A stretch of 59,137 nt of DNA, from positions 1 to 59,137 of the IMG/VR virus record IMGVR_UViG_3300002461_000254; one strand, given 5' to 3'. This document shows positions 25,660-44,565 of this stretch, one piece after another. The notes beneath the pieces are model-generated. The model was not told where the DNA came from. It worked only from the letters and a program-made list of their open reading frames with translations, and ran no database searches. Position numbers and translations under genes: made by a program. Within the stretch, counting starts at the first letter, position 1. Each line of letters starts with the position of its first letter. This DNA comes from a virus (lineage: Duplodnaviria > Caudoviricetes).

Positions 25660-26091
25660 ATGCGATACTTCGACGAACAGCTCGTCGCCAACTCTCGCCC
25701 CCATGCGGAGTGGTGGAACGAGGTTTCCATGGTGCGCGAGCACTTCCACCGGACGGAGGAGGGCCTTGCCTCTCTGACGGCCCAGTTCATGGGCAACGCC
25801 GCCTCGATCCTGCCGCGCGATGCGTGGCTCGACCTCGACGGTATCACCCGGCGCGTCATGCGCTCGGACGAAGGCCAGGTCTGGATGGCGGACCTCATGC
25901 CGCTCGCCCGCCCGGTCAACATCGGCAAGATCGTGGTGATGAACCGCGTCTCCAGCGATGCGGGTGCGGTGACGCGCTCGATCTCCGGCCAGGTGCCGGT
26001 CGCCATGGACAAGGTGACCTACGACTATCGCGGCTCGCCCGTGCCCATCTTCTCGACCGCCTATGGTCGCGAGTGGCGCGAGTGGAACACG
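25660..26091 (+). pseudogene. major capsid protein, 5' part (interrupted)
   Basis: 144 codons ending REWREWNT at the direct repeat; continues in frame at 44566. Confidence 0.88.
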
Positions 26092-26135
26092 GTCGGGCCG
26101 GAAAACCGAACAACCCATTGACATGAAAAGGAAAT

Positions 26136-26159
26136 AGGCCCTTCGGGGCCTGTTTTTTT
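26136..26159 (+). terminator. rho-independent terminator just inside the satellite left end
   Basis: AGGCCC-TTCG-GGGCCT followed by G and T7. Confidence 0.85.
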
Positions 26160-26279
26160 GCCCGGTGATTGAGCGACAAAGGGCGACGCATAACCCATTG
26201 AAAAGTCAGAGACCGCCGACGTTGCGCGGCGCCGCCGACCGGCAACGAACCGGCAAGAGAGCGGCCGAAAGGAGATGTC

Positions 26280-26483
26280 ATGACATCGGATAAACGACCC
26301 GATCTTTGTCACGGGATTGAAGAGATCGCCAAGCATCTTGGCCTGGAGGAGCGTCAAGCCCGCTACCTTCATGAACGGGGGGAGCTGCCCACTTTCAAGC
26401 TCCGGCGCTCTGTGTGCGCTCTGCGCTCGAAGCTCGACGCATGGCTTCTGAAAAAGGCCTCGGAGGGCTCCTCCCATGGCTGA
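26280..26483 (+). CDS. AlpA/Xis-like wHTH protein
   Basis: IEEIAKHLGL...LPTFKL...CALRSKLDAWL. Confidence 0.75.
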   Translation: MTSDKRPDLCHGIEEIAKHLGLEERQARYLHERGELPTFKLRRSVCALRSKLDAWLLKKASEGSSHG

Positions 26484-26730
26484 CTTCGCAACCACCGACG
26501 ACCGGCTGATTGCCGAGGTCCCCAAGAACCAGCGCGAGACGATCCACGTCGCCCTGCGCACCTTCCAAGGCAACCGCGGGATCGATCTCAGGGTTCACGC
26601 GACGAACCATGACGGGAAGCTGGTGCCGACGCCAAAGGGCGTGGTGATCAAGCCGGCGAAGCTGCGCGACGTGATCGAGGCGCTCCAGGCCGCCGAGAAG
26701 GCAGCGATCGGCGAGGGTCTGCTGCCATGA
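26476..26730 (+). CDS. PC4/p15-like ssDNA-binding protein
   Basis: KNQRETIHVAL..FQG..GIDLRV...PTPKGV. Confidence 0.8.
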   Translation: MADFATTDDRLIAEVPKNQRETIHVALRTFQGNRGIDLRVHATNHDGKLVPTPKGVVIKPAKLRDVIEALQAAEKAAIGEGLLP

Positions 26731-27215
26731 ACGACACCCCCGCCCAACCGTTCTGCATTCTTGGCATCGACCCCGGCATCAGCGGCGCGATCGCCTTCTA
26801 CTTCCCCGACCGACCGGATTTGATCGGGTGCGACGACATGCCGGAGGCCGACGGCGAGGTCGACGCGGTGTCCCTCGGCCAGCGCATCCGGCAGATGGCG
26901 CCCGACCTGGCCGTGATCGAGCGGGTGCATGCGATGCCAAAGCAGGGCGTCTCCAGCACCTTCAACTTCGGCGCTGCCTATGGGACCGCCCAGGGCGTCG
27001 TGCTCGCGCTCGGCGTCCCGCTTCTGAGGGTCACTCCGGGCGCGTGGAAGAAGCACTTTCGTCTGTCCTCGGACAAAGAGCAGGCGAGGGCGATGGCGAT
27101 CCGTCTCTGGCCGACCTCGACCCACTTCACCCGGAAGAAGGACGCCGACCGCGCCGAGGCCGCGCTGATGGCTCGCTTCATCGCCGAAACCCGGCCGGCA
27201 GGAGACCGCCGATGA
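26727..27215 (+). CDS. RuvC-like Holliday junction resolvase
   Basis: ILGIDPGISGA, AVIERV, TPGAWKK, DRAEAALMA. Confidence 0.85.
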   Translation: MNDTPAQPFCILGIDPGISGAIAFYFPDRPDLIGCDDMPEADGEVDAVSLGQRIRQMAPDLAVIERVHAMPKQGVSSTFNFGAAYGTAQGVVLALGVPLLRVTPGAWKKHFRLSSDKEQARAMAIRLWPTSTHFTRKKDADRAEAALMARFIAETRPAGDRR

Positions 27216-27451
27216 TCACTGAAAATGGATATGTTGAGATCGACGGCGGCACCCTCACCGAAGGCAGCGATGCCCGCCTGATCGGGACGCGCCGCTACTT
27301 TGTGACTCTCGTCAGCCGGATCGGCGAGCGGTGCTGCGTTTGGGACGGCCCATTCTATTCCGACGCGCTTACCGCGGCCACGGAGATCCGCAGCGAATCC
27401 GGCCTGCCGCTGAAAGACCTCACCGGCGAAACGACGGGAGCGGTCCAGTGA
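27212..27451 (+). CDS. hypothetical protein
   Basis: Coupled ORF with RBS. Confidence 0.55.
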   Translation: MITENGYVEIDGGTLTEGSDARLIGTRRYFVTLVSRIGERCCVWDGPFYSDALTAATEIRSESGLPLKDLTGETTGAVQ

Positions 27452-27723
27452 AGCTCCCCTCGTTCAATCTCGCGATCGCCTCAACCGAGGCCCGGACCGC
27501 CGCCATCGCCTTGGCATCGACCGCATCCGACCTCGTCAGCGAACGGAGGGTCCGGCGAAAGCGGGTGGAGCGGCGCGCGTCGGCGGAGCTCAAGGTGCTC
27601 GCCCGCAAGTGCCTGTCTCGGCAGGGAGCCTTCGACGACGAGGACCTCGCTTTCGTCGAGAAGGAGGCAGCGGAGGAGTTCAACGCCCGCCTGGCCCAAT
27701 GGCTGGGGGCTGCCCATGAATAG
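27448..27723 (+). CDS. hypothetical protein
   Basis: Coupled ORF. Confidence 0.5.
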   Translation: MKLPSFNLAIASTEARTAAIALASTASDLVSERRVRRKRVERRASAELKVLARKCLSRQGAFDDEDLAFVEKEAAEEFNARLAQWLGAAHE

Positions 27724-28033
27724 GCACCGGCTTCCAGATCGCCGCCGCTCGGAAACTCGGCAGGTGGCACACCGCGGCCAAGCGTTCGCCGTCAGCGTCG
27801 GCTTCTATCCCGATGGTCGGCCCGCCGAGTGCTTCATCTCGTCCGTGAAGACCGGCAGCGACTTCGCGGCCATCGCCAATGACGCTGCGGTGGCGGTGTC
27901 GATCGCCTTGCAGTACGGGGTGCCTCTCGAGGCTCTGGCATCGGCTATGTCGCAGGACCCGCAAGGCGGAGCCGGCAGCGTTCTCGGCGCCATCCTCAAC
28001 GCCATCGTTGACGAGCCGCCTCGGCCACGATGA
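27716..28033 (+). CDS. stand-alone TSCPD domain (NrdJ C-terminal-like)
   Basis: RHRLPDRR, GFYPDGRPAECFI, SIALQYGVPLE. Confidence 0.75.
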   Translation: MNRHRLPDRRRSETRQVAHRGQAFAVSVGFYPDGRPAECFISSVKTGSDFAAIANDAAVAVSIALQYGVPLEALASAMSQDPQGGAGSVLGAILNAIVDEPPRPR

Positions 28034-28653
28034 ACGAGGCCGGTCGGCAGCGCGACGATATTCTCGACCGCGCGGGACTGATGGCAGACTGGCTCGCCCA
28101 AGCGTTCGGGGCGATCGGGGACGGCAGCGCTGCTGAAGCCGCACGGTGGCTCGCCGCGCATGGCGTGCCAGCCGACCTGATAACCGACCTGCCGATCCTG
28201 CCCGCTACCGTCCGATGGCTCGACCCTGGCGATGGCTTTGCGTTCGCCTCCACCGGCTCCCGGGCGCTGGTGTTCCCGATTTCCGATTGTGAGGCCGCCG
28301 AGGCCGACTTCGGCGACCTTCTCGCATTCGACCCTGCCGCGCCTGACCGCTTCGAGGTCGCCCGCGGCGGGGCATGGGCGCTCGGCGAGGACCAGGTCAG
28401 CGCCGTTCAACTCCGTCTGCACAACACTCCCCTTCAGCTTTGGCGCAACCCCCTCCGCTGGCTTCAGGCCGGCCGGCGCGGGGTCGTCATCCTCGACCAC
28501 GCGAGGGCACCGCATTGGCTCAGACAGATCGGCCCCATTCGAGCGCAGGACGAAGCGCACCGTCAGGAGGTCGCGGCGATGTTCCGCCGTTGGCGGGCCA
28601 TCCCGGACATTGGACTTCCTCCGGCCCAATCACCCATCGCAGCAACACCCTGA
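28030..28653 (+). CDS. hypothetical protein
   Basis: Coupled ORF; LWRNPLRWLQAGRRGVVILD. Confidence 0.65.
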   Translation: MNEAGRQRDDILDRAGLMADWLAQAFGAIGDGSAAEAARWLAAHGVPADLITDLPILPATVRWLDPGDGFAFASTGSRALVFPISDCEAAEADFGDLLAFDPAAPDRFEVARGGAWALGEDQVSAVQLRLHNTPLQLWRNPLRWLQAGRRGVVILDHARAPHWLRQIGPIRAQDEAHRQEVAAMFRRWRAIPDIGLPPAQSPIAATP

Positions 28654-28662
28654 AGGTGCAGC

Positions 28663-28893
28663 ATGCCGCATAGAACGAGCCCGCGTTGCGCCGTCTGCGC
28701 ATTCTTCAGCCCCGTGCTTGGGAACCCCGAGTTTCAGCCGCCCGCGAACCTGCGGATGGGCGAGTGTCGCGCCATGCCTCCGAAGGCAGCTGGTGACGAT
28801 GACGGCGCGCTGATCCGGGGGCGCGGCATTTGGCCGGCCGTCGAGCCGGAAGACTGGTGTGGCCATCATGCGGAGCGTCCCGATGCAGGATGA
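28663..28893 (+). CDS. small Cys-rich (putative Zn-binding) protein
   Basis: CAVCAFF...GECRAMPP...WPAV...DWCGHH. Confidence 0.65.
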   Translation: MPHRTSPRCAVCAFFSPVLGNPEFQPPANLRMGECRAMPPKAAGDDDGALIRGRGIWPAVEPEDWCGHHAERPDAG

Positions 28894-30187
28894 AACCGGG
28901 CCGCTCACCGTCGAGCAGATTGTCTGGCACCGGAAGTTCGGCGTGGGCACGGTAGCCGTCCCAGACGATACCGCGGGGATGGTCGGTGTTGAGTTCGCCA
29001 CCGTGGGACGGAAGCGCGTCATGCGTTCATTCCTTTCCACGCGCCCATTTCCCGCCATCGAGCCGGCCGCTTTTGAGCCGGCGCGGCGATCCGGCCCAGC
29101 CCTAACCATCGTCGCAGCATCAACACTCGCCGCAGGGCGTGCCACGCCGCGGCAAGAGCATGTCGCGGGAATGATCCCGGCCAAGAATGTGACGCTGCTG
29201 TTCGGAGACGGCGGCACCGGCAAGAGCCTCCTGGCACTGCAACTCGCGTTCTCAACAGCGACCGGCCATCCATGGATAGGGATGCCCACCGAAGAGGGCC
29301 GCACGCTGTTCCTCACGGCCGAGGACGAGGTTGAGGAGGTGCATAGGCGCTTGGAGAGCATCTGCCTGAAGACGGGCTATGACCTCGCCGAGGTGGCCGA
29401 GCTCCACATCCTCAGCCTCGCCGGTAAGGACGCCCTCCTGGCCACGGCTGAGGGCCGGTCGGGCATTCTCCGGCAGACGCCACTACTCGGACAGTTGGCC
29501 GCCTGGATCGGCCAGCGCAAACCCGCTCTGGTGGTCCTTGACACCCTGGCCGACCTATTCGGTGGAGAGGAGAACGTCCGATCCCAGGCGCGTCAGTTCA
29601 TCTCCATTCTCCGTGGGATCGCCATCGAGCACGGCGCGACCATCGTGCTTCTCGGACACCCATCGCTGTCCGGCATGACCAGCGGCGCCGGTACGTCCGG
29701 CAACACAGCCTGGAGCAACTCCGTCCGCTCCCGCCTCTACCTCGAAAGACAGGTCGTGCGCGAAGGTGAAAGGATGGCAGAGCCGGATCCCGATGTCCGC
29801 GTCCTGCGCGTCATGAAGGCCAACTATGGGCGCGTCGGCACCGAGTTGCGAGTGCGCTGGCAGGACGGGGTGTTCGTGCCCGTCGAGAACAGTATCGGAG
29901 GTGCTGGTCTGGTGGCAGCCGGGTTAAAGGCCGAGCGCGTGTTCCTCGACCTCGTGGCCACATACACAGCGGAAGGCCGAAGCGTCAGCCCAGCGCCGTC
30001 AGCCGGCTACGCCCCCACGGTGTTCGCCGCCGACGCCAGGGCAGAGGGGCTTACCAAGGGCGCCCTCGCCAAGGCCATGAACCGATTGTTCGCCTCAGGA
30101 CAGATCGCCGTGGAAAGCTATGGCCCTCCCTCCAAGCTCAGGCAGCGGATCGTGGTCAAGGAAGTGAGGCGCTATGATGCCGATTAG
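28883..30187 (+). CDS. AAA_25/RepA-like SF4 helicase
   Basis: GDGGTGKS, LVVLDTL, LLGHPS, SGNTAWSNSVRSR, KANY. Confidence 0.9.
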   Translation: MQDETGPLTVEQIVWHRKFGVGTVAVPDDTAGMVGVEFATVGRKRVMRSFLSTRPFPAIEPAAFEPARRSGPALTIVAASTLAAGRATPRQEHVAGMIPAKNVTLLFGDGGTGKSLLALQLAFSTATGHPWIGMPTEEGRTLFLTAEDEVEEVHRRLESICLKTGYDLAEVAELHILSLAGKDALLATAEGRSGILRQTPLLGQLAAWIGQRKPALVVLDTLADLFGGEENVRSQARQFISILRGIAIEHGATIVLLGHPSLSGMTSGAGTSGNTAWSNSVRSRLYLERQVVREGERMAEPDPDVRVLRVMKANYGRVGTELRVRWQDGVFVPVENSIGGAGLVAAGLKAERVFLDLVATYTAEGRSVSPAPSAGYAPTVFAADARAEGLTKGALAKAMNRLFASGQIAVESYGPPSKLRQRIVVKEVRRYDAD

Positions 30188-30190
30188 GTA

Positions 30191-30290
30191 CCGACGCCCT
30201 GCCGACGCCCTTCCAACGCCCTTCCAACGGGGTGTGTGCTCCAACCCCCCATACCCCCCACCGGGTTGGAACACCCCGGGCGTTGGAACG
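30191..30290. repeat. iteron-like repeats (putative satellite ori)
   Basis: 11-nt tandem CCRACGCCCTK x3 plus a partial copy, and inverted copies GTTGGAA / GGGCGTTGGAA. Confidence 0.65.
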
Positions 30291-30533
30291 CCGGGGTCAA
30301 CCCGCGAGACTGAAGGCAGGCCAGCCCGCGACAGCAACGCGAGGAGGTGCCAATGTCGATAGGAGGGCAGAATAGATGGCGAAAAACTCCCCCAGATCGA
30401 AAGGCCATGCGACGGCTCCGATACACGGTAGCGGAGCTATGTGCTTATTGGGGAACGCTTTTTTCGCTTGCGTTCATTCTTGCGGTCTCCTATCTTTAGC
30501 GGTGCTACAGCAATGCTAAGGAAGAGACGCAAG

Positions 30534-31193
30534 ATGCAGGTCTTCGGCTACATCCGAGTGAGCACGGCGGAGCAGTCCAAGCGGGGCGAAAGCCTGGATG
30601 CCCAGCGCCGCATGATCGAAGGCTATGCCATGATGAAGGGCTGGCAGCTGGCCGAGGTCTTCGTCGAGGCTGGGGTGTCTGGATCGGTCCCGTTGGCGGA
30701 ACGCCCTGAAGGAAAGCGACTGCTAGCCCTCGTCGAGAAGGGCAACGCGGTGATCACGCCGAAGCTAGACCGCATGTTCCGTTCGGCGGCCGATGCGCTC
30801 GCAACCCTTGAGGTTCTCAAGGCCGATGGTGTGTCGCTGCACATGATCGACCTCGGCGGCGATGTGTGCGGTAACGGCATCAGTAAGCTCGTCTTCACGA
30901 TCCTGTCTGCCGTCGCTGAGAGTGAGCGGGACCGCATCCGCGAGCGCATCCGGGACGTGAAGCAGAGCCTTGCCGCTCAGGGCCGATACAATGGCGGCAA
31001 GCGCCCCTTCGGCTTCGACGTTCTCGGCGATCGGCTTGTGCCGAACGAGGCGGAGCAGTCCGCCCTGGCCGACATGAGGGCGATGCGAGAGGCCGGTGCT
31101 AGCCTGCCAGCCATCGCGGCTAAGCACGGGACTCATGCGGCGACCGTGAAGCGATATCTTGAGCGCAAAGGCCATCTCGCCACCACATCTTGA
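30534..31193 (+). CDS. serine recombinase (resolvase family)
   Basis: GYIRVSTAEQ, GVSG, KLDRMFRS, VAESERDRIRER. Confidence 0.92.
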   Translation: MQVFGYIRVSTAEQSKRGESLDAQRRMIEGYAMMKGWQLAEVFVEAGVSGSVPLAERPEGKRLLALVEKGNAVITPKLDRMFRSAADALATLEVLKADGVSLHMIDLGGDVCGNGISKLVFTILSAVAESERDRIRERIRDVKQSLAAQGRYNGGKRPFGFDVLGDRLVPNEAEQSALADMRAMREAGASLPAIAAKHGTHAATVKRYLERKGHLATTS

Positions 31194-31301
31194 TTTGCGA
31201 CAGCCTATCGCATAGTCTTTCAGGCGTCGGCGTCGCTCCGACACGCTCATGGCGCCATCTGGCGAGCGGGCTCCCTCACCACTCAGGGAAGCCTCGTCAG
31301 C

Positions 31302-31967
31302 ATGCCGGCCGAAGCCCGCACCGATACCGAGAAGCAGCAGCGGTCAGCTAAGGCTCGGCGACTGCTGAAGCACCGTTGCAAGGTGTGCAACCATCCTGAG
31401 CGGGTGCGTATCGAAACGCTCCGCCTCGCGGGCGTCACCCTCGACAATCTCGCGGCCCGGTTCGGGCTTCAGCGCGACCTCATCTGGCGGCACATGAGGG
31501 ACCACGTCGACAGTGAGCGGCGCGCCCAGCTGATCGCCGACGTGCCCATGTCCGAACTAGCCGAGCGGGCAAACGCGGAAGGGACCAGCCTCCTCGATAA
31601 CCTGGCGATCGTCCGCAAGACCGTGATGGATGCGATGGTCGAGGCGGCGACGGTAAAGGACCGCCGCGCGACAGCATCGCTGGCCGGTCGGGCAACGGAA
31701 GTGCTGGTCGAGATGGGTCGGCTCACGGGCGAGATCCTCCGCAGCGGCCCAGTCACGAACGTGACGCAGAACGTCGCCGTGTTTATGGCCAGCCCAGCCT
31801 ATGCGAACCTTGAGGCGATGCTGATCCGCAAGCTTCAGCGGCACCCCGAGGCCCTTCGCGACGTGCTGGAGGGCTTGCAGGAGCTTCAGACAGCGCCTCC
31901 GGCAATTGAGGGAACGATCTCCCTTCCTGTGATCAGGGAGGCTGGCGATGACCGCGCTGCCGCGTGA
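31302..31967 (+). CDS. putative satellite terminase small subunit / HTH protein
   Basis: CKVCNHP plus HTH, directly upstream of the second terL. Confidence 0.55.
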   Translation: MPAEARTDTEKQQRSAKARRLLKHRCKVCNHPERVRIETLRLAGVTLDNLAARFGLQRDLIWRHMRDHVDSERRAQLIADVPMSELAERANAEGTSLLDNLAIVRKTVMDAMVEAATVKDRRATASLAGRATEVLVEMGRLTGEILRSGPVTNVTQNVAVFMASPAYANLEAMLIRKLQRHPEALRDVLEGLQELQTAPPAIEGTISLPVIREAGDDRAAA

Positions 31968-33255
31968 TGCAGACCTCTATGGGCGGCTGGCGAGCGCCCT
32001 GTCGAGCAGTTGGCGTCTTCGGGCTCGGCCCGATCAGCTGCCCCCGGAGGGGGAGGATTGGATCACCTGGCTCATCCTCGCCGGCCGCGGCTGGGGAAAG
32101 ACCCGCACGGGCGCCGAGTGGGTTCAGGAGCAGGTGATGAGCGGGGCGAGCCGCATCGCCCTAGTTGCGCCGACTGCCTCGGATGCCCGGGACGTCATGG
32201 TCGAGGGGGAGAGCGGGCTTTTGGCCATCGCTCCTCCGCACATGAGGCCGACCTATGAGCCATCGAAGCGCAGATTGCTGTGGCCGAACGGTGCCATTGG
32301 CACGACGTACAGCGCAGATGAGCCGGAGCGTCTGCGCGGGCCCCAGCACGACGCGGCATGGTGTGACGAGCTTGGCGCGTGGCGCTATCCCGAGGCGTGG
32401 CCGATGCTGCAGATGGGCCTTCGGCTCGGCGCGCGGCCGCGCTGTGTCGTGACGACGACCCCCCGACCGATCAAGCTGGTGCGGGACCTGGTGGAGCAGC
32501 AGGGCAGGGGCGTGGTGATCACGCGCGGCCGCACCCTGGACAATGCGGCGAACCTTGCGCCGACCTTCCTGAAGGCAATCGAGGGCCTGTACGGCGGCAC
32601 GAGGCTCGGCCGGCAGGAACTCGAAGGCGAGCTGCTAGAGGACACGCCCGGCGCGCTTTGGCAGCGGGCGTGGATTGATCGTGACCGGGTGGACCGGCCA
32701 CCTGAACTGGTGCGGATCGTTGTGGCCGTCGATCCGGCGGTGTCGAACAATGAGGGATCGGACGAGACAGGGATCGTCGTCGCCGGCATCTGCCGTCAGG
32801 GCCACGTCTACGTGCTCGACGACCTGACGCTGAAGGCCAGCCCCGAGGGATGGGCGAAAGCAGCGGTCAAGGCTTTCCATGGGTGGGAGGCGGACCGGAT
32901 CATCGCAGAGGTGAACAACGGCGGCGCGCTGGTCGAGGCCACCATTCGGATGGTCGATCAGAACGTGCCCTATCGAGAGGTGCGGGCGAGCCGCGGCAAG
33001 GTTTCCCGAGCGGAGCCGGTATCCGCTCTCTATGAGCAGCAGCGGTGCCATCACGTCGGGGCGTTCGATGCCCTCGAAGACCAGATGTGCGCCTTCACTA
33101 GCGACTTCGACCGCTCGAAGATGGGCTACTCCCCGGACCGGGTCGACGCCTTGGTCTGGGCGATTACCGAGCTGGCCGTCGACCAAAACCCCGTCAGATC
33201 GGCAGGTGTCTTCCTGACCAGCCGCGTGCGCCAGATCGGTGGAGCGGCATCATGA
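31948..33255 (+). CDS. terL: satellite terminase large subunit
   Basis: AGRGWGKT, AWCDE, VTTTP, SPDRVDAL; collinear with the helper TerL. Confidence 0.93.
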   Translation: MTALPRDADLYGRLASALSSSWRLRARPDQLPPEGEDWITWLILAGRGWGKTRTGAEWVQEQVMSGASRIALVAPTASDARDVMVEGESGLLAIAPPHMRPTYEPSKRRLLWPNGAIGTTYSADEPERLRGPQHDAAWCDELGAWRYPEAWPMLQMGLRLGARPRCVVTTTPRPIKLVRDLVEQQGRGVVITRGRTLDNAANLAPTFLKAIEGLYGGTRLGRQELEGELLEDTPGALWQRAWIDRDRVDRPPELVRIVVAVDPAVSNNEGSDETGIVVAGICRQGHVYVLDDLTLKASPEGWAKAAVKAFHGWEADRIIAEVNNGGALVEATIRMVDQNVPYREVRASRGKVSRAEPVSALYEQQRCHHVGAFDALEDQMCAFTSDFDRSKMGYSPDRVDALVWAITELAVDQNPVRSAGVFLTSRVRQIGGAAS

Positions 33256-33403
33256 CGGGTTTCCAGAACCACTCCGTGGACGCAGGCGCGCGAGGCGTCG
33301 GCGACTTCAATCAACTGCGAGATGGCGGGAGTGGTGACGCTTCCTTCGTCGATTGGTCGCCGCTCGCGGGCCTCGCACCTTTCCAACCGAAGAGGATCAC
33401 GAC

Positions 33404-33673
33404 ATGACGACCCGAACTTTTGTGACCGCCGGGGCAGGCCAGAAGCCGACCGACGAAGACTTCGAGGCTCTCCGCAAGAGGACCGACGCGGCGGTTGCCA
33501 GCGTCGAGGAGATGCTGAAGCCGGAGAATCTGACGAAGCTGGTCAGCGATGCCCTGGCGCCGGTTCTGAAGGATCTCGGCATCAAGCCGCAGACCGACGC
33601 GATGAACGCGGCCGGCGGGCGCAAGCCGGCGCCTGGCAGCAACCCGTTCAAACTCCCGAAGGCGGAGAACTGA
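33404..33673 (+). CDS. mini scaffold-like protein
   Basis: Ends NPFKLPKAEN versus helper scaffold PSFKLPKAEA. Confidence 0.7.
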   Translation: MTTRTFVTAGAGQKPTDEDFEALRKRTDAAVASVEEMLKPENLTKLVSDALAPVLKDLGIKPQTDAMNAAGGRKPAPGSNPFKLPKAEN

Positions 33674-33675
33674 CC

Positions 33676-34296
33676 ATGTCGAGCCCCTTCAGCAGCAAGT
33701 CGGCGGCGGATATTCGGGGCCGCCTCCTCGAAATCCGCCGAGAGGAGGAGCGCCACGCCGCGCGCGATCTTGACGCCGAACTGGCGGAGGTCATGGCGGC
33801 CGGCGGCGACCTCGACGCGATCGAGGCCAAGCACCTCGACGCCGAACGGGTCATGCGGCGCCTGCGAGTGGAGCGACGCGCGCTAGAGGCGGCGTTGCCG
33901 GAGGCCGAGCGGCGCGCTGGCGCGGCAGCGGTAGCCAAGTTCGCCGAAGAGCATGAGACCCTCGCCAAGGCGGCTCAGGCGGCTGCAGTGGCGGCTGTGG
34001 CGGCGTGGCAGCGGTTCCGCCAGGATCTGACCTCCTTCGCCGGCCATCAGGCGGAGGCCAGCCGGCTGACACACGCTGCGGATCAGGCGGCAAGCAACAG
34101 CGGCGCCGAGATGCCGATGATGGGCATGTTCAACAGCGCGGCGCTGACGGCTGTGCTCGCCGACCTCAACGAAGCCGATGCCGATATCCGCAGGACACTG
34201 GCGAGTGCGGACCAGCGCATGCACGTCGGCAAAAACTGGACACTCATGGCGCGTCCGATCGACGGCCCGCAGGCCGCCAATGACCAGGCTGCCTAA
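33676..34296 (+). CDS. all-helical coiled-coil hypothetical protein
   Basis: Ala/Glu/Arg-rich heptads. Confidence 0.65.
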   Translation: MSSPFSSKSAADIRGRLLEIRREEERHAARDLDAELAEVMAAGGDLDAIEAKHLDAERVMRRLRVERRALEAALPEAERRAGAAAVAKFAEEHETLAKAAQAAAVAAVAAWQRFRQDLTSFAGHQAEASRLTHAADQAASNSGAEMPMMGMFNSAALTAVLADLNEADADIRRTLASADQRMHVGKNWTLMARPIDGPQAANDQAA

Positions 34297-34534
34297 TCTG
34301 ACCGCAGCGGCCATCTTGCCTCGCCCGCCGGCATCTGCGGCGGCCATGCTGCAGGCCATGGAGCGGGCCGCGGAGCCGGCGCGCGCGGTGTTCGATCGCC
34401 AGCGCGGCCGGGCCATCGCGGCGCTCGACAGCACCGGCGCCCGCCAACTCGTTCTTGGGTTTCTGGACAACTTCCGGCGGTCCCGAAGCCTCTATCCGGA
34501 CCTGCCGGTCAGCGAAACCACCTGGAGACTTTAC

Positions 34535-37594: not shown

Positions 37595-38379
37595 CATGCA
37601 TTGTGATGTTTGCCGGAGACGACGGCGTGCTCGCCCTATCCGATACCGCCTGCATCTCGATGCGCGGCGAGATCATGTGCTTCATGGACAAGGTGGAGAT
37701 GCACCCGACCCGCCACATGTGCATCGCGCAATCTGGCCAAGCTGGTTTCCTCCCCGCCCTTTGGGTCGTGTTGGGCAACGAGATCAGCAGCCTCGACGAC
37801 TTCGAGGCCGCGTTCCCCGCTGCGGCAAGCTACGTCTACCGCCACATGATGTTGCAGACCGGCGGCAATGTGCTGGAGGTCGGGCTTGCCGTCGGTGGTT
37901 GGTCTGCGCGGCGCAACGGCTACACCCTTCTCTGTACGTCCTCCTACGAGAAGACGAGCCGCAACCTCGAAACAGACGAGATCACCGTGCGGGAGCCGTT
38001 CTCGTTCATCGAAGGCGGCATGTGGATGAGCGGCAACCCGGATCCCGACGACCTGCGGGCGGTCGGACTCGATCCCGATGACATTCGCGGGGAAATGGAT
38101 CGTCGCGATCGACTGGACTTCGGAACGCGGCTGGTCTTTGCCAAGCGGCGATCCTCAGGGCCACGCGAGCCTTCAGCGGAGAGCAGCGCGCCCTACTACC
38201 TCTGCGGGGGCAGCATTGTCATGTCCCGACTGTGGGACGGCGGAGCATCTCAGCAGGTGCTTTACCGCTGGAAAGACCAAGTTGGCGACACGGTAGACCT
38301 CTCACAGGACGAACCGCCGCCCAAGTTCTCGTTCGGCAACGTCGAAGACACGCCGGTTGAAACCGCCGAACAGCCGTGA
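37591..38379 (+). CDS. hypothetical protein, possible Ntn-hydrolase fold
   Basis: N-terminus MTCIVMFAGDDGVLALSDT. Confidence 0.45.
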   Translation: MTCIVMFAGDDGVLALSDTACISMRGEIMCFMDKVEMHPTRHMCIAQSGQAGFLPALWVVLGNEISSLDDFEAAFPAAASYVYRHMMLQTGGNVLEVGLAVGGWSARRNGYTLLCTSSYEKTSRNLETDEITVREPFSFIEGGMWMSGNPDPDDLRAVGLDPDDIRGEMDRRDRLDFGTRLVFAKRRSSGPREPSAESSAPYYLCGGSIVMSRLWDGGASQQVLYRWKDQVGDTVDLSQDEPPPKFSFGNVEDTPVETAEQP

Positions 38380-38727
38380 ATGAATAGCGCCGAGAGGTGC
38401 AACATGATCCGAGCCGCCAGCTTTGCAGCTGCCATCGTTATCCAGGCCGGCACGGCTCAGGCCCAAGATCGCCCGGCCTATTGCCCCATCCCGGAACGCT
38501 CCTCGGCGGACACGCTCAACGTGATCATTCACTACTGCCGACCCGGCGACCTGATCGGCATCCCTGCCGACAACCCGGAGTGGGTGGCGCGGATTTGCGA
38601 CCTCTCTAAGCCCACCACGCCGACGGGCCGCTTCGTCGTCTGCCATCTCGCCGCGAGCATCGGGCCTTACAAGGGCGTACCCGGGTCGTCCTCTCTGCTC
38701 CGAGAGCAGGTCATCCGACCGCGCTGA
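38380..38727 (+). CDS. small secreted Cys-containing protein
   Basis: Signal peptide ending AQA-Q. Confidence 0.5.
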   Translation: MNSAERCNMIRAASFAAAIVIQAGTAQAQDRPAYCPIPERSSADTLNVIIHYCRPGDLIGIPADNPEWVARICDLSKPTTPTGRFVVCHLAASIGPYKGVPGSSSLLREQVIRPR

Positions 38728-38794
38728 GGCCTCGCGCCCCGTTCCGCCGATAGCCGTCCCTGCTATCCTCAGGCGCCGAATCAGGGAGCGCGCC

Positions 38795-39214
38795 ATGGCG
38801 AGACGACCGATCCCAGTGCATGAGCCTGAGGTGGTGTCGGCAGGCGCCAAGCGCCGTTGGGGCGATGACGAGAAGGTTCCGACGACAGCCATTGGCACTC
38901 TTGTGGTCGACGGTGTCGGCCTAAGCAGTCGGTATGACAAGGCTCATGAGATTGAGGCCATGAGGCGGATGGTTGAGGGAGTGGAGCCCCACCTGCGGAG
39001 GCACATCCTTAGCATCTGGTGCGATAGCAAGGCCGAGGCGTGCTATTCCGTGTCTCTCGACGGTTGCGACGAGCGGACTGCCGTGATTGTGGTCGATCAA
39101 CTCGAAGAAGCCTGCCGCGTAAAGAATGGCGGCCACAACGGCATGTGGGTCAGCGGACACCAAGGCGGAGGGCTCTCGCGCGACCCCTATTGGGCTGGTG
39201 ATGACCAGTTGTGA
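38795..39214 (+). CDS. hypothetical protein
   Basis: RBS; coupled to the next gene. Confidence 0.6.
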   Translation: MARRPIPVHEPEVVSAGAKRRWGDDEKVPTTAIGTLVVDGVGLSSRYDKAHEIEAMRRMVEGVEPHLRRHILSIWCDSKAEACYSVSLDGCDERTAVIVVDQLEEACRVKNGGHNGMWVSGHQGGGLSRDPYWAGDDQL

Positions 39215-40134
39215 CCAGCCCGCCTCGTATCCTTCTACCTTCGCGCCTTGAGGGCACCGCTATCCACCGCGTGACGAGCGCGATCACTGCGGCGTGTCCT
39301 GATGGGCTCCCGAAGGAGATTGTCTTCGATATGAGCAGCCTGCGCTTCGTCCGTCCCGCCGGGGTCGTGCTGCTTAGCAACGTCGTCTCGTGGATGAAAC
39401 ACCGGGATTGCAGAGTTACGTTTGCCGGAACATCCACGTCCGCGGGATGGAGCCGACCCGAGGGGGTCACCTACCTCGATAACGCGCATTTCTTTCGACT
39501 GCATCAAGGTGCCCCGCTAAGCCCGGCGGCGAAGTCGTATCGGTCGATGCAACCGCTGCGGCTTATATCAAACAACGATGTGCACGCTTGGCTGGAAAAT
39601 AATCTGATACCTTGGCTAGCGAGTATTCTGCGCGTCAACACAGCGACTTTGGCGGATTACAAGGTTTGTATCAGCGAACTATTCAACAACATTCACGACC
39701 ATTCGGCTAATGAGATTGGAAGCATTCTGGTCCAACATTTTGGAGCAGAGAACACAGTCCGCATTGCCATCGCAGATTGGGGTGTAGGGATCCCAGCGAC
39801 GGTCAGAAGGGTTGAGCCGGAGATTGTGGGGCATGGCGATGCAATTGTGCGGGCTGTCCAGCCCGGCTTCACATCGAAATCCTGGCCGCGTAACCAAGGG
39901 GCAGGCTTGGCGCACCTTCTGGACAAGGTGGTCGGATCAAACCGCGGTTCCGTACTAATCATGTCGAGCAACGGAACTGTTCGCTTTGAGCCCGCCGGGG
40001 AGGGCGGAACTGGTTGGAGTTCCGTCCCGCTGTCTGATGCCGGATTCTGCCCAGGCACCGTTGTAGAAATCCACCTACGTACCGATACTATCGAGCACGT
40101 GCCCGAGAGCAGGGAGGACATGGAATGGCCCTGA
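39211..40134 (+). CDS. STAS-like + GHKL/HATPase protein
   Basis: FDMSSLRFVRPAG; ELFNNIHDHS, IADWGVGIP, NQGAGL, PGTVV. Confidence 0.85.
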   Translation: MTSPPRILLPSRLEGTAIHRVTSAITAACPDGLPKEIVFDMSSLRFVRPAGVVLLSNVVSWMKHRDCRVTFAGTSTSAGWSRPEGVTYLDNAHFFRLHQGAPLSPAAKSYRSMQPLRLISNNDVHAWLENNLIPWLASILRVNTATLADYKVCISELFNNIHDHSANEIGSILVQHFGAENTVRIAIADWGVGIPATVRRVEPEIVGHGDAIVRAVQPGFTSKSWPRNQGAGLAHLLDKVVGSNRGSVLIMSSNGTVRFEPAGEGGTGWSSVPLSDAGFCPGTVVEIHLRTDTIEHVPESREDMEWP

Positions 40135-40421
40135 TAAAGGTCGCCGACATCGCTTCCGGGGCGGACACCGGGGATCAAGGCGCCGCTGTCGCCGAGCACC
40201 TGGAGGTGGCGCTGAGCCGCGCCGACGCTGTCACGCTATCGTTCGATGGGGTCTCGACAGCGACCTCGTCTTTCGTCAATGCAGCGCTGCTGCCGATCCT
40301 CGACCGCATGAGCTTCGAGGAGTTCAAACGCCGAGTACGCATCGTCGATTCCACCCGCCAGATCAACGGAATGATACGGGAGCGCGTGATGCATCGCGCC
40401 GCCGCGCTCGCAGCTCACTAG
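40125..40421 (+). CDS. STAS-like (DUF4325) protein
   Basis: VTLSFDGVSTATSSFVNAAL. Confidence 0.8.
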   Translation: MALIKVADIASGADTGDQGAAVAEHLEVALSRADAVTLSFDGVSTATSSFVNAALLPILDRMSFEEFKRRVRIVDSTRQINGMIRERVMHRAAALAAH

Positions 40422-40538
40422 GCGCCGCGTTCCCCTTCCGGTCCTACAGGCAGTTGCGGTGGGAAGGCGCGCGCATCACTCTCATGCCTTGCCCGCTCCG
40501 GTATCTCATGCCTCAATAAGGCAACCGGGGAGGGTGCA

Positions 40539-41144
40539 ATGCGCGTCTGGCTTTCACTGGCGGTGATGGCGGCGATGTCGGCCGGCGCTCTTGCTCAGGA
40601 TCTCGAAACGCAGATGCGGGACTGTAGAACGAAGACGGTCGCTGCGGAGCGGCTAGAGTGTCTTGATGCGATCCCCCTGCCAGAACTTCCGGCAGCGACC
40701 GAAGACAGTGCAGCGGCATGGTCGATCACTGAAGGTAAGTCACCGCTCGATGACAGCCCCTCGGTGACGGCGGCGTTGGCAGCGCAGCCTCCCAGCAAAC
40801 TATTGATGATCGTGCGCTGCCGAGAGTCGCGGACGGAGTTATTGGTATCCGCAGACGGACCGATCGATTTCACCCAGCAACTGGCAGTAAGCTATCGCCT
40901 AGGCCAAGCGCCGGCAGTGCAGGCAAATTGGGGCACGTCCACCAACGGGCGGGCAGTGTTCTCACCGCCAGCGGCGACCATCTCGACTATCAGGAGTATT
41001 CCCGAGAACGGTCGGGTGTTCTTCCGTGTGCGGGGCCAAATCGCTCAGCACGAGGGGACTTTCAACACGGCCGGCATCGATGAGGTCCGCCGCAGGGTTT
41101 CGATAGCCTGCAGGTGGCCTGCTGAGGGCGCGCGGCGCCGCTGA
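40539..41144 (+). CDS. secreted VasI/TagO-like protein
   Basis: Signal peptide; RLECLD; WSITEGKSPLDDS; IVRCRESRTEL. Confidence 0.65.
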   Translation: MRVWLSLAVMAAMSAGALAQDLETQMRDCRTKTVAAERLECLDAIPLPELPAATEDSAAAWSITEGKSPLDDSPSVTAALAAQPPSKLLMIVRCRESRTELLVSADGPIDFTQQLAVSYRLGQAPAVQANWGTSTNGRAVFSPPAATISTIRSIPENGRVFFRVRGQIAQHEGTFNTAGIDEVRRRVSIACRWPAEGARRR

Positions 41145-41390
41145 GGACTATGCGAAGCGCAGGCCAAGCATAGGCTGGCCGACGAGTATGACGCAGCGCA
41201 AGAACGTGGCGAGGTTCGTAGGCCCAATAACGAGAAAATCACTTCCAGCGCGGAAGCGGTTTCTGTCTCTGACCTTGGCCTGTCCCACAAGGACATCCAC
41301 GAAGCCCGCATCATCCGTGACGCCGAGAAGGCTGACCCAGGCATCGTCCGGCGCGCAAGCGTTCGCCCCCGCGGGGACGGCGCTTCTTGA
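41145..41390 (+). pseudogene. start-less fragment of a common phage protein
   Basis: EAQAKHRLADEYDAAQERGEV...LGLSHKDIHEARIIRDAEKADPGIVRR, no start codon. Confidence 0.55.
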
Positions 41391-41688
41391 TCGGTTAGGG
41401 AAATCAGTTCATCGTGTCCGTGGGTGTGGAAACCCGGACCTGAGTAGGGACGTCGATCCGTTGGCGCGGATCACGTGCCCATCGCGTGAGAGCCTTGGCG
41501 GGCTCGACATCGCGTGGAGCGCCTTGGCGGGCGCCCGTCCTGGCCATTATGGCCGGGGGCGGTGCGCCATGTCCAGCGGGAAACCGTAAAAGCGCGTCGA
41601 CGTGTCTCTCAGGCACGTTTCCACCCCCCGGCTGCCCGGTCTGTTACCGGGCGCGGCTGTGGAAAGCCGATCACCTGAGAGCACCACC

Positions 41689-42336
41689 ATGAACACGATG
41701 CACGCCACGGCGGCACCGGGGCTCGTCCCCGACCATCCCAGCAACATTCTCGATATCCTCGACCGCCTCCGACTGGAGGCTAAAGGCGACGTTCGGCGCA
41801 TGCGCCGCGCGGCAGCTGAGCGCGTCGATGCCCTGATTGCCTTTCTCGACGCCACCGATGGCGACGCCGACCTTGAAGACGGCGATGGCCTCGAAGACGG
41901 TTGGGACCTTGAGGACGGCGGCGAGAGCGAACCGACACTCGGCGCCAGCGAAACCCGCCTTTCGATCCCTGAGCACCGCACATGGTGGGGGCCGATAGTC
42001 GAGAGTTGCGAGCCGCTCGGCTCCCAGTCGTCTTGGGCGGCTGGCCACCTGCGCAGCGATGACGCCGAAGAGGATGTGCAGGACGAGCCGCACGACGCTG
42101 GATACGAGGGCAACGACGAACCCTCTCTCGGCTGGCCGGAGGGCCGCGAAAACCAGCAAGGCGGGCTCTTCGGCACCGATGACACCGAAGACGAGCACGA
42201 CGGCCGCGAGCCCGATGACGAGGATAGCGCCGTCGACGACTTCGGCTGCGACGACGAGGAGTCTGACAGCTTCTACGCCGCTGGCCCTGAAGCCCACTTC
42301 CAGATGGCGGCGGGCTTCGAGCACTCCGCTATCTGA
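41689..42336 (+). CDS. highly acidic hypothetical protein
   Basis: D/E-rich with repeated EP(S/T)LG. Confidence 0.7.
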   Translation: MNTMHATAAPGLVPDHPSNILDILDRLRLEAKGDVRRMRRAAAERVDALIAFLDATDGDADLEDGDGLEDGWDLEDGGESEPTLGASETRLSIPEHRTWWGPIVESCEPLGSQSSWAAGHLRSDDAEEDVQDEPHDAGYEGNDEPSLGWPEGRENQQGGLFGTDDTEDEHDGREPDDEDSAVDDFGCDDEESDSFYAAGPEAHFQMAAGFEHSAI

Positions 42337-42389
42337 CGACACCCGGCCGGCGCCACGCGCGCCGGCCACCATCCCATCAGGAGAAGACC

Positions 42390-42728
42390 ATGAACTGCAC
42401 CGACATCATCGCCGCAGCTGAGGCCGGCGACCGTACTGCAACAGAGGAAGCCTTCCGGGCGCTTGTCGACTTCCCGCACGAAGAGCGCGTCGAAGGAACG
42501 CCGGACGAGCTTCTCGCCGCCCTCGACAGCTGCTGCGCCACGCTGATCGACGACCGGGTCGTCATGCCGGCCGGGACATGCCGCGCGCTCGGCATTCCGG
42601 CAGGCTCCAGCTATCACCAGGGCGCGGGATCGGCGCAGGCGGGCAGGGACGCGCTCCAGCGCCGATTTGCCGCCTATAGCCCTTCCTACGGCAGCGAGGG
42701 CGTCCTCCAGGCGGGGAGGGCAATGTGA
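42390..42728 (+). CDS. hypothetical protein
   Basis: AGGAG RBS. Confidence 0.6.
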   Translation: MNCTDIIAAAEAGDRTATEEAFRALVDFPHEERVEGTPDELLAALDSCCATLIDDRVVMPAGTCRALGIPAGSSYHQGAGSAQAGRDALQRRFAAYSPSYGSEGVLQAGRAM

Positions 42729-43321
42729 TGGCTCAGCCGATCGTGCGGGAGCACCCGCAGAGGACCATCAGCCGCCTTCAGAGGCAGGTCGATCAGTTGC
42801 GGCGGCAGGCGACGGAACAGCCGATCGAACGCTTTGATGTCGAGGCTGCCGCGGCGCTCAACCAGCTGCGAGAAGTGGTGGCCAGCCTCGCCAGCGAGAT
42901 CATCGCCCTCCGGATCGAGAGCGAGGGGATGCGCCGGGCCGCCGGCGTGGCGGTGGTGATGGACGGTGAGGAGAGCAAATCCGAAGTGCTCTACGGAGCG
43001 GCGGCGATCGCGAGGTTTCTCGGGCTCGCCGAGAAGGTCGTGAGGCATCGCATTGATCAGCAACTGATCCCGACTTTCCGCATTGGCGGAACGGTATGCG
43101 CACGGCCCGCCCGCCTTCGAGAGTGGCTCGCCGATCAAGACAAGCCCGATCTGCTCTACGGGATGAAGGACATCGCGGAGCATCTCGGCCTCTCTGAGCG
43201 TCAGGCGCAGCACCTGCACGACACCTCCCGACTACCGACCTACAAGATTGGTCGGAAGATTTGCGCGCTGCGCTCGAAGCTCGACGGATGGCTTGATCAG
43301 CAAGCGGGGAGGGCAACCTGA
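42725..43321 (+). CDS. coiled coil + tandem AlpA/Xis-like wHTH protein
   Basis: Two repeats homologous to 26280-26483. Confidence 0.75.
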   Translation: MMAQPIVREHPQRTISRLQRQVDQLRRQATEQPIERFDVEAAAALNQLREVVASLASEIIALRIESEGMRRAAGVAVVMDGEESKSEVLYGAAAIARFLGLAEKVVRHRIDQQLIPTFRIGGTVCARPARLREWLADQDKPDLLYGMKDIAEHLGLSERQAQHLHDTSRLPTYKIGRKICALRSKLDGWLDQQAGRAT

Positions 43322-44544
43322 TGGCTAGCGTTCGCAAGAGGAAGTGGACCTATAACGGCACCGTCAGGGAGGCATGGATCGTCGAGTACCGAGACGGAGC
43401 TGGCAAGGTGCGAACCATCACCGAGCGCACCAAGAAGGATGCGGAGCGGCGACGGTTTCAGGTCGAGGCCGAGATCGAACGCGGCGAGCACATCCTGATC
43501 AAGAAGACGGTGCTCGAGTTGTGCGACGACTTCCTCCGGCTACAGGACCAGCGCGTCAGAGACGGCACAATCGGCAGGCCCTGGCGCCGGATCATCGAGA
43601 GGTATGTGCGCCTTCACGTGCTGCCGTACATCGGGGCCCGAATCTTCTCCGAGCTTCAGTCGACGGATGCAGAGCACTGGTGGGTGGAGGTGTCCAAGGC
43701 GGGCACGATGAACGTCCAGACCCGAAAGAGCTGCCTGGAGGTCCTACGGCAGATCGAAGACATGGCGGTCCGCCGCGGTTACGGTAAGCGGCGGGTCTTC
43801 GCGGAGTTCAGACCGGAGCGAGCGGCAGGGCGGCGCACCATCGCAACGTTCACCGTTGACGACGTGAAGGCGCTCATCGAAGCCCTGAAGCACAAGCCGC
43901 GGTGGATCCGTCACCGGATGCACGCCACCATGAAAGTGGCCGTCTATCTGGCGGCATTCTGCGGGCTCCGGCGCGGCGAAATCTTCGGGCTCAAGGCGGA
44001 GAATGTCGACTTCGATCGACGGCTTATCAAGGTGCGCAACAGCCTGACGAACGACCTTGTGCTGAAGGGCCCCAAGACGCGATCGGGCATTCGCGATGTG
44101 CCAATGCCCGGACCTGTAGAAGCGGTGCTTCGCGAGTGGTGGGACACCTACTACCGCCCGAACCCGCACGGCCTACTCTTGACTACGGAGAACGATGCGC
44201 CTGTGACGATGAGCCATGGCTTCTACAACGCTTGGGGCTTGCTGCTTCAGCGGGCCGGTCTTCAGGAAAAAGGGGAGGCCCGGCCCTTCCATTTCCACGC
44301 CCTGCGACACTTCGCGGCGAGCTGGATGCTGGAGGGTCGGCTGTCGCCCCCCGATGTTGCTGGCCTGCTCGGACACCGAACTTTCGATGTCACGTTGCAG
44401 GTTTACGCGCATTCGGTTTTCTCTGGTTCGCACCGGCACGATGCGCTCGATCGGATGGCCTCCGCGTTGGTCGCCGCTCCACAGACAATCACGCTGGAAC
44501 CGGCAAAAACCCGGCAAGAGGGTGCTAAGTCGTTGATTTCATAA
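43321..44544 (+). CDS. int: satellite tyrosine integrase
   Basis: CGLRRGEIFGL, PKT, FHALRHFAAS, LLGH, VYAH; ends 10 bp before attR. Confidence 0.95.
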   Translation: MASVRKRKWTYNGTVREAWIVEYRDGAGKVRTITERTKKDAERRRFQVEAEIERGEHILIKKTVLELCDDFLRLQDQRVRDGTIGRPWRRIIERYVRLHVLPYIGARIFSELQSTDAEHWWVEVSKAGTMNVQTRKSCLEVLRQIEDMAVRRGYGKRRVFAEFRPERAAGRRTIATFTVDDVKALIEALKHKPRWIRHRMHATMKVAVYLAAFCGLRRGEIFGLKAENVDFDRRLIKVRNSLTNDLVLKGPKTRSGIRDVPMPGPVEAVLREWWDTYYRPNPHGLLLTTENDAPVTMSHGFYNAWGLLLQRAGLQEKGEARPFHFHALRHFAASWMLEGRLSPPDVAGLLGHRTFDVTLQVYAHSVFSGSHRHDALDRMASALVAAPQTITLEPAKTRQEGAKSLIS

Positions 44545-44565
44545 CGCCCAAAAGAGTGGAACACG

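Follow-up and report, generated by a model that had tools for sequence, protein, structure and literature searches.

Satellites that exploit helper phages follow several described patterns. SaPIs (Staphylococcus aureus pathogenicity islands) and other phage-inducible chromosomal islands (PICIs) can redirect capsid size, as when CpmB competes with the scaffold of phage 80alpha, and the capsid-forming PICIs (cf-PICIs), which have capsid, portal and connector genes of their own, are without tail genes and take only the tails of their helpers. Satellites embedded in the late genes of prophages form a further type, the helper-embedded PICIs (HE-PICIs), and the first-pass annotation of the DNA treated here was right to call such elements already described: according to the main text of Tommasini, Mageeney and Williams 2023 (PMC10111431), they are reported from Enterobacterales only, the phage surroundings having been restricted to Enterobacterales integrase matches, and their type element, 11capE, lies in prophage 50icd of E. 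coli NRG857c. Here, we analyse IMG/VR virus record IMGVR_UViG_3300002461_000254, the whole 59,137-base stretch of which is called the window below. It contains an 18,474-bp insert that splits the major capsid gene of a prophage. With a probability of roughly 0.75, we interpret this insert as an integrative, helper-embedded phage satellite residing inside its helper prophage.

The insert is bounded by the 12-mer GAGTGGAACACG (codons E-W-N-T), which occurs in exactly two copies in the window (26080-26091 and 44554-44565), both on the + strand and in phase with one gene; none of 100 shuffles reached at least two matches. Start to start, the copies are 18,474 bp apart, and removing this length, as had been proposed from the sequence, does rejoin a single open reading frame (ORF) of 352 aa (144 + 212 - 4), intact homologues measuring 341-356 aa (65 distinct sequences). 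The N-side ORF runs from the ATG at 25660 to 26091 (144 aa) and is extended by nine codons of the insert up to a TGA stop at 26119-26121. It matches positions 1-100 of 301 in the Pfam profile DUF6260 and 1-149 of 354 in phrog_771, and the C-side ORF (44554-45192, 212 aa) matches the complementary parts, 97-301 and 147-353, respectively. Both halves also align with a solved structure, PDB 9ocb_A ('Major capsid protein gp39'), the N-side ORF with residues 6-140 (E 4.9e-35) and the C-side ORF with residues 144-348 of 356 (E 2.1e-45), so that between them they show full-length homology with a major capsid protein, and the identification of the rejoined ORF as the capsid gene holds. PDB 5wk1_A is a further structure aligned by the capsid halves; judging from the molecule names of the matched structures, we take the fold to be of the HK97 class. 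Among named phage genes, the closest is the coat protein gene of phiLM21, a Sinorhizobium phage, with 69.7% identity over the C half.

In all 80 related IMG/VR loci (the best 80 of 168 relatives from a pattern scan), the capsid gene is unbroken, and the two halves from the window overlap by exactly 12 nt. The GAGTGGAACACG site falls in the conserved motif GREWREWNTLQSENFDAL of the intact homologues, the most conserved stretch of the capsid protein. The 24-residue context of the core is identical in 42 of the 80 intact loci; the exact 12-mer is found in 9 of them and a one-mismatch form in 30. A profile search of the whole record returned no second DUF6260 match. Since this profile is matched by the two split halves alone, the record holds no intact capsid gene. 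Overall, recombination by the tyrosine integrase of the insert took place between a 12-bp core and those codons of the helper capsid gene that are most conserved.

Keeping in mind that the record stems from a metagenome, probably one of activated carbon, one might ask whether two metagenomic genomes were joined in an assembly chimera. The chance of this is practically negligible: both junctions are marked by an exact 12-bp direct repeat that keeps the phase of a single gene, attL is crossed with 0 differences by a contig of a separate Logan assembly, albeit one that probably derives from the same sample, and the same architecture is found in isolate genomes (see below). In drinking-water metagenomes of another study (runs X3 and X4, 2024), parts of the element and one stretch of the helper capsid gene also recur with 0 differences; they cover interior stretches of 25700-44950 and not the junctions. 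None of the listed data sets that contain the sequence is an RNA data set.

The outer element is a chromosomal prophage with its own integrase, because a host gene (xanthine-dehydrogenase-like, 3-2378, 73% G+C) and an integrase occupy its left end; RecT and PDDEXK nuclease genes come after the integrase. No significant similarity was found between this integrase and that of the insert. The helper is best described as a phiLM21-like prophage of siphovirus type, and its uncultured host is probably an alphaproteobacterium.

The insert comprises 26092-44553 plus one core copy, and all of its called genes lie on the + strand, as does the capsid gene (Table 1). From left to right, it is composed of attL, a terminator, an Xis-like gene, replication genes, a TerS-like/TerL pair, a scaffold-motif protein, a tail chaperone, a tape measure protein (TMP), cargo, a second Xis-like gene (Xis2), the integrase and attR. 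The first Xis-like gene begins 200 nt past attL and reaches 23 bits for HTH_17, under the Pfam cut-off; the stop codon of the integrase gene sits 10 nt ahead of attR. A doubled CCGGCAA pattern matches the window at just two places, one per arm, the chance expectation being 0. In scans of the 25 element ORFs against PHROGs and Pfam, 13 were without any PHROG family. The predicted inventory of an integrase, Xis-like HTH genes, a helicase and TerL was recovered, and PHROG recognised no capsid, portal, protease, connector, tail-tube, baseplate or lysis family among the 25 ORFs. Likewise, neither Sid, Psu, Delta and Bro families nor an AlpA Pfam match was found in the element. A tape measure is, to our knowledge, an unusual cargo for satellites. 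That of the element has no significant similarity to the TMP-like protein of the helper (best E 0.027), and the similar N-termini claimed for the two in the first-pass annotation remain a weak likeness (9/16 identical, E 0.21).

Table 1. Features of the window (positions on the 59,137-base stretch) and, in the last seven rows, split head or packaging genes in relatives, for which positions are those on the named profile of complementary N and C fragments lying on one strand, followed by the distance between fragments
Feature	Position	Strand	Basis or remark
Helper prophage tyrosine integrase	3251-4330	-	outward-facing; adjoins host xanthine-dehydrogenase-like gene
Helper head module upstream of insert	20724-25646	+	TerS, TerL, portal, phrog_760 protease/scaffold-like, head decoration
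Helper TerL	21349-22662	+	compared with element TerL
Helper phrog_760 protease/scaffold-like protein	24073-25194	+	ends PSFKLPKAEA
Helper major capsid gene, 5' fragment	25660-26121	+	140 native codons, EWNT core, 9 element-derived codons, TGA
attL identity block GAGTGGAACACG	26080-26091	+	exact repeat; conserved motif GREWREWNTLQSENFDAL
Intrinsic-terminator hairpin with A-tract and U-tract	26128-26159	+	56 nt inside attL
Doubled CCGGCAA motif, left arm	26238-26259	+	candidate arm-type or Xis binding site
Xis-like HTH_17 gene, first after attL	26280-26483	+	phrog_18541, phrog_66 'excisionase and transcriptional regulator'
Replication and recombination module	26476-30187	+	next five rows
PC4-like ssDNA binder	26476-26730	+	PHROG/Pfam
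Holliday junction resolvase	26727-27215	+	PHROG/Pfam
TSCPD protein	27716-28033	+	PHROG/Pfam
Protein without assigned function	28030-28653	+	
AAA_25 helicase	28859-30187	+	PHROG/Pfam
Small serine recombinase (resolvase/invertase type)	30441-31193	+	PF00239 E 5e-33; phrog_95, phrog_125
Candidate small terminase, 221 aa	31302-31967	+	position only; overlaps TerL start
Element large terminase (TerL)	31948-33255	+	phrog_979 E 1.3e-46
89-aa protein with helper scaffold C-terminal motif (FKLPKAE)	33404-33673	+	GC3 frame plot; BLASTP
206-aa helical protein, no assigned function	33676-34296	+	GC3 frame plot, ORF list; no PHROG match
Tail assembly chaperone-like gene	34178-34921	+	phrog_313 E 3.7e-8
885-aa tape measure protein	34937-37594	+	phrog_24 E 1.3e-44
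Cargo, no assigned function, ~5 kb	37570-42728	+	phrog_3364, phrog_9989, phrog_1848; weak Pfam matches
HATPase/STAS-like gene	39211-40134	+	phrog_3364; weak STAS_2 and HATPase_c_2
DUF4325 STAS-like gene	40125-40421	+	Pfam
Second Xis-like protein (Xis2), two HTH_17-like repeats	42725-43321	+	phrog_18541, 2 stretches; HTH_17 38 bits
Tyrosine integrase, 407 aa	43321-44544	+	phrog_1 E 1.8e-58; sole Pfam match PF00589
Doubled CCGGCAA motif, right arm	44499-44520	+	candidate arm-type or Xis binding site
attR identity block GAGTGGAACACG	44554-44565	+	exact repeat
Helper major capsid gene, 3' fragment	44554-45192	+	DUF6260, phrog_771, 9ocb_A
Helper late genes downstream of insert	45195-59136	+	Ad1 adaptor, Hc1 head closure, MuF-like, tail terminator, major tail protein, TMP-like, tail proteins; last gene cut by record end
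Helper TMP-like gene	53184-55256	+	compared with element TMP
G001 (L085), TerL	N 348-511; C 533-967		phrog_15; 11.5 kb; att block FWNR, 11 nt; cargo: second integrase, transposase
G002 (L093), TerL	N 319-414; C 412-997		phrog_15; 21.1 kb; att block LKTTV, 11 nt, one mismatch; cargo: primase-polymerase, helicases
G003 (L095), TerL	N 323-433; C 428-988		phrog_15; 19.9 kb; att block PTSIL, 16 nt, one mismatch; cargo: primase-polymerase, helicases
G004 (L103), TerL	N 377-677; C 670-997		phrog_15; 11.0 kb; att block NLLR, 12 nt; cargo: DnaB-type helicase, replication protein
G005 (L106), TerL	N 322-434; C 424-978		phrog_15; two contigs
G006 (L097), TerL	N 158-279; C 270-678		phrog_9; 16.6 kb; att block GILFQDAVKM, 31 nt, two mismatches
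G012 (L109), protease-capsid	N 19-116; C 109-667		phrog_133; 11.3 kb; att block with 7-nt core; cargo: Ant/Bro-type antirepressor, full protease-capsid gene, 1313-aa TMP-like peptidase protein

Two products of the element point towards the packaging machinery of the helper. Its TerL shares 53% identity with that of the helper along 421 aa reaching as far as the C-terminus, and beyond this protein the element does not resemble the helper at E<1e-5. At the DNA level, the sole match between the two is a stretch of 286 bp at 70% identity inside the two terL genes; because it is confined to these genes, the two have no cos or pac segment in common. Judged by its sequence, the terminase of the element is a private one that belongs to the family of the helper enzyme. 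Recent capture of this gene from a close helper was considered and rejected, as its product reaches 45-58% identity with the TerLs from nine phiLM21-like loci and in no case scores higher than the TerL of the helper. The candidate TerS preceding it has no Pfam or PHROG match and no relative among viral contigs; a homologue (38% identity) lies upstream of TerL in locus L117, and in the Atlas the candidate is surrounded by hypothetical proteins of viruses, several of which have HTH families.

The second product is the 89-aa protein, which ends in NPFKLPKAEN, as the phrog_760 protein of the helper ends in PSFKLPKAEA; BLASTP aligns the two at both C-termini with 15/29 identities (E 0.03). Of 74 helper-type phrog_760 proteins, about 70 have the pattern [FY]K[LV]P[KE][AG][ED] at their C-terminal end. 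Because the motif is kept in so many of them, it seems to represent a functional end that was copied by the element.

Just inside attL there is an intrinsic-terminator hairpin, which folds at -19.8 kcal/mol (z -2.6) and is the only + strand site of such kind in the whole window. A generic terminator scan placed it on the - strand, and the + form was confirmed by folding, a rule-based scan and a background count. Together with the six relatives whose ends could be mapped (see below), all seven elements have a hairpin with a T-run 43-78 nt inside attL, and the same rule finds just 11 + strand sites in the 185 kb examined. Two roles of this hairpin may be envisaged. It could act as a gate: in the integrated state, helper late transcripts would end right after the capsid stub, and the downstream head and tail genes would then rely on excision or on transcription born in the satellite. 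From the hairpin to the end of the record, no other + strand terminator of the same kind is present. It might equally be an end signal, given that in the circular form the hairpin would directly follow int across the core and could serve as an operon terminator or as a retroregulator resembling sib, by which phage lambda controls int. As in lambda, the 3' end of int and the hairpin face each other across the att core at close range, and integration parts them; this likeness is purely positional.

Searches with the integrase suggested that the element is not a solitary case. The closest relative, P0002, is 65% identical, and every other one is at most 49%. Scans with the single protein gave one weak viral relative (22% identity) and none among genome contigs, and among the 15 matches listed from 50,697 phage records no phage protein exceeded 28% identity; on sequence grounds, the enzyme would not be a known phage type. 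Using an alignment of 22 integrases (A1), we recovered 57 loci, of which 33 are alphaproteobacterial at 31-44% identity. The other 24 (L118-L141; Treponema, actinobacteria, others) are mostly partial matches at no more than 34% identity, save in stretches of <90 aa, and were left unanalysed. When the ORF following int was scanned at 20 loci, it proved to be TerL at ten, portal at three, protease-capsid or capsid at two, a weak tail-fibre match at one and nothing relevant at four. Local searches added a protease fragment at L094, a portal C-terminal fragment at L098 (the weak tail-fibre case) and a protease-capsid gene at L111. Altogether, a head or packaging gene or a fragment of one lies no more than about 800 nt downstream of int in 18 of the 33 alphaproteobacterial loci.

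Split TerL or protease-capsid genes were found in seven of the 14 genomes tested, six of them with both fragments on one contig, 11-21 kb apart, and the seventh on two contigs. In the six relatives that could be mapped, att identity blocks of 7-31 nt are located inside repeated codons, attL is followed at a distance of 161-300 nt by an Xis-like gene, and int stands beside attR. The same ends (attL, terminator and HTH_17 Xis on one side, tyrosine integrase and attR on the other, all co-oriented with the split head gene) are thus common to the window and all six. In an integrase tree, from which L091, L107, L110 and L113 were left out as partial matches, the enzyme of the window nests among those whose targets are protease-capsid, portal and TerL genes, and a very long branch leads to the integrase of the helper itself. 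Because many deep forks are unsupported, we make no claim that subclades follow target sites. Such evidence supports the view, drawn from sequence comparisons, that an alphaproteobacterial integrase lineage targets prophage head and packaging genes.

Several relatives have peculiarities of their own. The 11.3-kb element of Sphingomonas tagetis MG17 (G012, L150) carries a full-length homologue (phrog_133 20-667) of the very gene that it splits. Tape-measure genes lie between Xis and int in L100 (5265-8750) and L102 (6533-8668); in L098, one (1285-3762) is found upstream of int and is probably carried by the element, and L109 has a TMP-like gene. TerL occurs upstream of int in L096 and L117. In G001 (L142), the N fragment of TerL contains a frameshift some 60 nt ahead of attL, which may reflect either the decay of an abandoned helper or an error in the assembly of a metagenome-assembled genome.

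These relatives bear on a rival explanation, by which the insert is a nested prophage in decay, or a mosaic island: a temperate phage that once integrated into the first would have lost its head and tail genes, become immobile and left the outer prophage inactivated. Phage late genes (TerL, chaperone, TMP) in the absence of a full set agree with such a history, as do the truncated look of many HE-PICI helpers, which the main text of PMC10111431 reports, and the frameshift in the split TerL of G001. However, all called genes of the insert are open and co-oriented, its integrase is of full length, its att blocks are perfect, and identical pieces were found in the samples of another study nine years later. 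Moreover, seven elements of 11-21 kb in different genera have the same ends despite differing cargo, and this indicates a maintained element type rather than independent decay. We consider decay unlikely.

Returning to the satellite interpretation, the following scenario may be proposed. By analogy with the induction experiments on 11capE described in the main text of PMC10111431, we infer that the composite would be excised, the satellite released and helper capsids filled. Upon helper induction, the composite would excise and replicate, after which Xis and Int would cut the satellite out, restoring the capsid gene and removing the terminator from the late operon of the helper. Before this excision, the helper would be unable to build heads, because the record contains no second capsid gene, and in this way the satellite would force its own co-mobilisation with the helper. 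The satellite would replicate by means of its helicase module, and its TerS-like/TerL pair would dock on the helper portal and package satellite DNA into helper-made capsids. The 89-aa scaffold-motif protein may alter capsid assembly, a redirection of size being one hypothesis, and it is tempting to suppose that the satellite's own chaperone and tape measure enter helper-built tails. On a bolder and rather doubtful reading, the attL terminator would cut the helper late operon in two until the satellite leaves, and helper capsids would be turned over to satellite DNA by the private terminase and the scaffold-motif protein. Furthermore, attB is confined to helper-carrying cells, and on this reading satellite particles equipped with a private tape measure could therefore inject into lysogens closed to the injection machinery of the helper itself.

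Several points weigh against this scenario. It is drawn from sequence and gene content; the TerS is a candidate assigned by its position, and the scaffold-motif match is short, with a pairwise E of 0.03. Since 13 of the 25 element ORFs are without a PHROG family, a divergent structural gene might be among them. Occupied capsid genes number 0 of the 80 related ones in IMG/VR, and this particular element is hence rare. In 15 of the 33 alphaproteobacterial loci, no head gene follows int, in some owing to a short flank, and in seven genomes (G007-G011, G013, G014) the head gene adjacent to int looks full-length; the unmapped site must therefore be upstream of that gene, so that these insertions may lie between genes. 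Among Logan contigs from four runs (25700-44950), which are blind to rare forms, none joins 26091 to 44566 or shows attP; the joints listed there match over 20-30 nt on each side and seem to come from other organisms. Finally, the helper is cut by the end of the record and may be incomplete.

The truly disrupted capsid gene, for which the insert supplies no replacement end, would also be expected of a host-serving island, genomic and possibly defensive, that locks a gene's integrity to keep the prophage harmless and spreads otherwise than in helper particles. The cargo region without assigned function, including the HATPase/STAS-like pair, could be read in the same way. On the other hand, PADLOC matched none of the ten cargo proteins to defence families, no relaxase or conjugation gene turned up in the PHROG and Pfam scans, and the helper-family TerL and the scaffold-motif protein point to the use of helper capsids, which makes such a lock very unlikely in our eyes.

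Compared with the HE-PICIs as presented in the main text of PMC10111431, the satellite described here follows the same strategy in many respects. Both are sited inside a helper late gene, the capsid gene being also the commonest HE-PICI site, and both supply no replacement gene end; their key genes are co-oriented with the interrupted late gene; their integrase lineages repeatedly target head and packaging genes at several sites; and both possess a doubled DNA motif on the two att arms and a variable zone of phage late genes. Unlike the reported HE-PICIs, our element belongs with its relatives to Alphaproteobacteria. The integrases of HE-PICIs form a branch of the PICI/P4 clade and are delimited by at least 400 bits to the 11capE Int (main text of PMC10111431); judged indirectly, via P4 Int instead of 11capE Int, the integrase of our element falls outside this clade, its best BLASTP match to P4 Int scoring 23.9 bits over 22 aa, without significant similarity. 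The zone order given there for HE-PICIs is Integration (int and AlpA) - Bro - Replication - Late, with int upstream and pointing inward, whereas here it is Xis - replication - late - cargo - Xis2 - int, with int downstream and pointing outward. Cargo differs too, consisting of TerL, chaperone and TMP with no Bro or AlpA match, and the main text of that paper, supplements aside, makes no mention of a terminator just inside attL. Our best reading is that the element works like an HE-PICI, yet its integrase lineage is unrelated to that of P4 and its layout and cargo are different.

With the other satellite types the similarity is looser, and the earlier statement that the gene content fits neither P4, PICI nor cf-PICI stands, as there is no Sid, Psu or Delta, no AlpA Pfam match and no recognised capsid or portal, and the integrase is unlike P4 Int. 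P4 is likewise an integrative satellite that has its own replication gene and takes structural proteins from a helper, but it integrates into a chromosomal tRNA gene, and the P4-type integrase, alpha primase and Sid/Psu/Delta that mark its kind were not found in the element; nor did Rfam, with 0 matches in the window, reveal any P4-type immunity RNA. Classical PICIs and SaPIs have a chromosomal att, a length of about 10-15 kb, a repressor, a primase-replication module and TerS and/or capsid-remodelling genes, with no TerL or tail genes, whereas the element has its att in a prophage gene, is 18.5 kb long and carries TerL and TMP. Like CpmB of SaPIs, the 89-aa protein is a small satellite product that appears, from its motif, to carry the C-terminal capsid-binding end of a helper scaffold; in sequence, the two are unrelated. 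Own packaging genes are shared with cf-PICIs, of which the element is otherwise the reverse, having its own tail chaperone and TMP and no capsid or portal match (25 ORFs, 13 unannotated). The Sphingomonas tagetis relative does carry a full protease-capsid gene.

As far as the main text of PMC10111431 goes, the published helper-embedded satellites come from Enterobacterales and from one integrase clade, and here the same strategy is met in Alphaproteobacteria, with relatives from Sphingomonas, Methylobacterium, Xanthobacter, Azospirillum, Brucellaceae and Devosia. We found no helper-embedded satellites of Alphaproteobacteria in the literature, including PMC9618062 and PMC12429752, the supplementary tables of PMC10111431 aside. 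Tropism for prophage head genes probably arose more than once, because the integrase lineage is unrelated to that of P4 and the layout is different. To go further and speak of an independently evolved helper-embedded lineage in Alphaproteobacteria, whose hallmark would be a cis-acting gate and whose members habitually bring a TMP and sometimes TerL, is a tentative and rather doubtful extension. New handles are provided by the conserved attL terminator, expected to be polar on the helper late operon, by the satellite-borne TMP and TerL, and by the scaffold-motif mimic; several of the relatives are in cultured, harmless strains and hence open to experiment, those with a mapped element including Methylobacterium carpenticola ID0610, Xanthobacter sp. 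DSM 24535, Sphingomonas sp. GC_Shp_5, Sphingomonas tagetis MG17 and Sphingomonas laterariae LNB2.

Finally, we would like to comment on some smaller features. The block formed by the TSCPD protein, the 28030 protein and the AAA_25 helicase is common to two IMG/VR contigs, L151 and L152 (29-49% identity), which are without the rest of the element; from this comparison, the block appears to be a mobile replication module. Within the cargo, 38795-40421 holds a trio of genes, encoding a 139-aa protein, the phrog_3364 protein and the DUF4325 protein (G+C 0.58 in 39001-40000), which may be a partner-switch-like or defence module. A 26-nt near-repeat (88%) precedes the starts of Xis2 and int (42708-42733 and 43301-43326) and looks like a duplicated translational-coupling signal. 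In the helper, two genes without assigned function (phrog_4652 and phrog_15946; 50929-52450) are located between the tail chaperone and the TMP-like gene.

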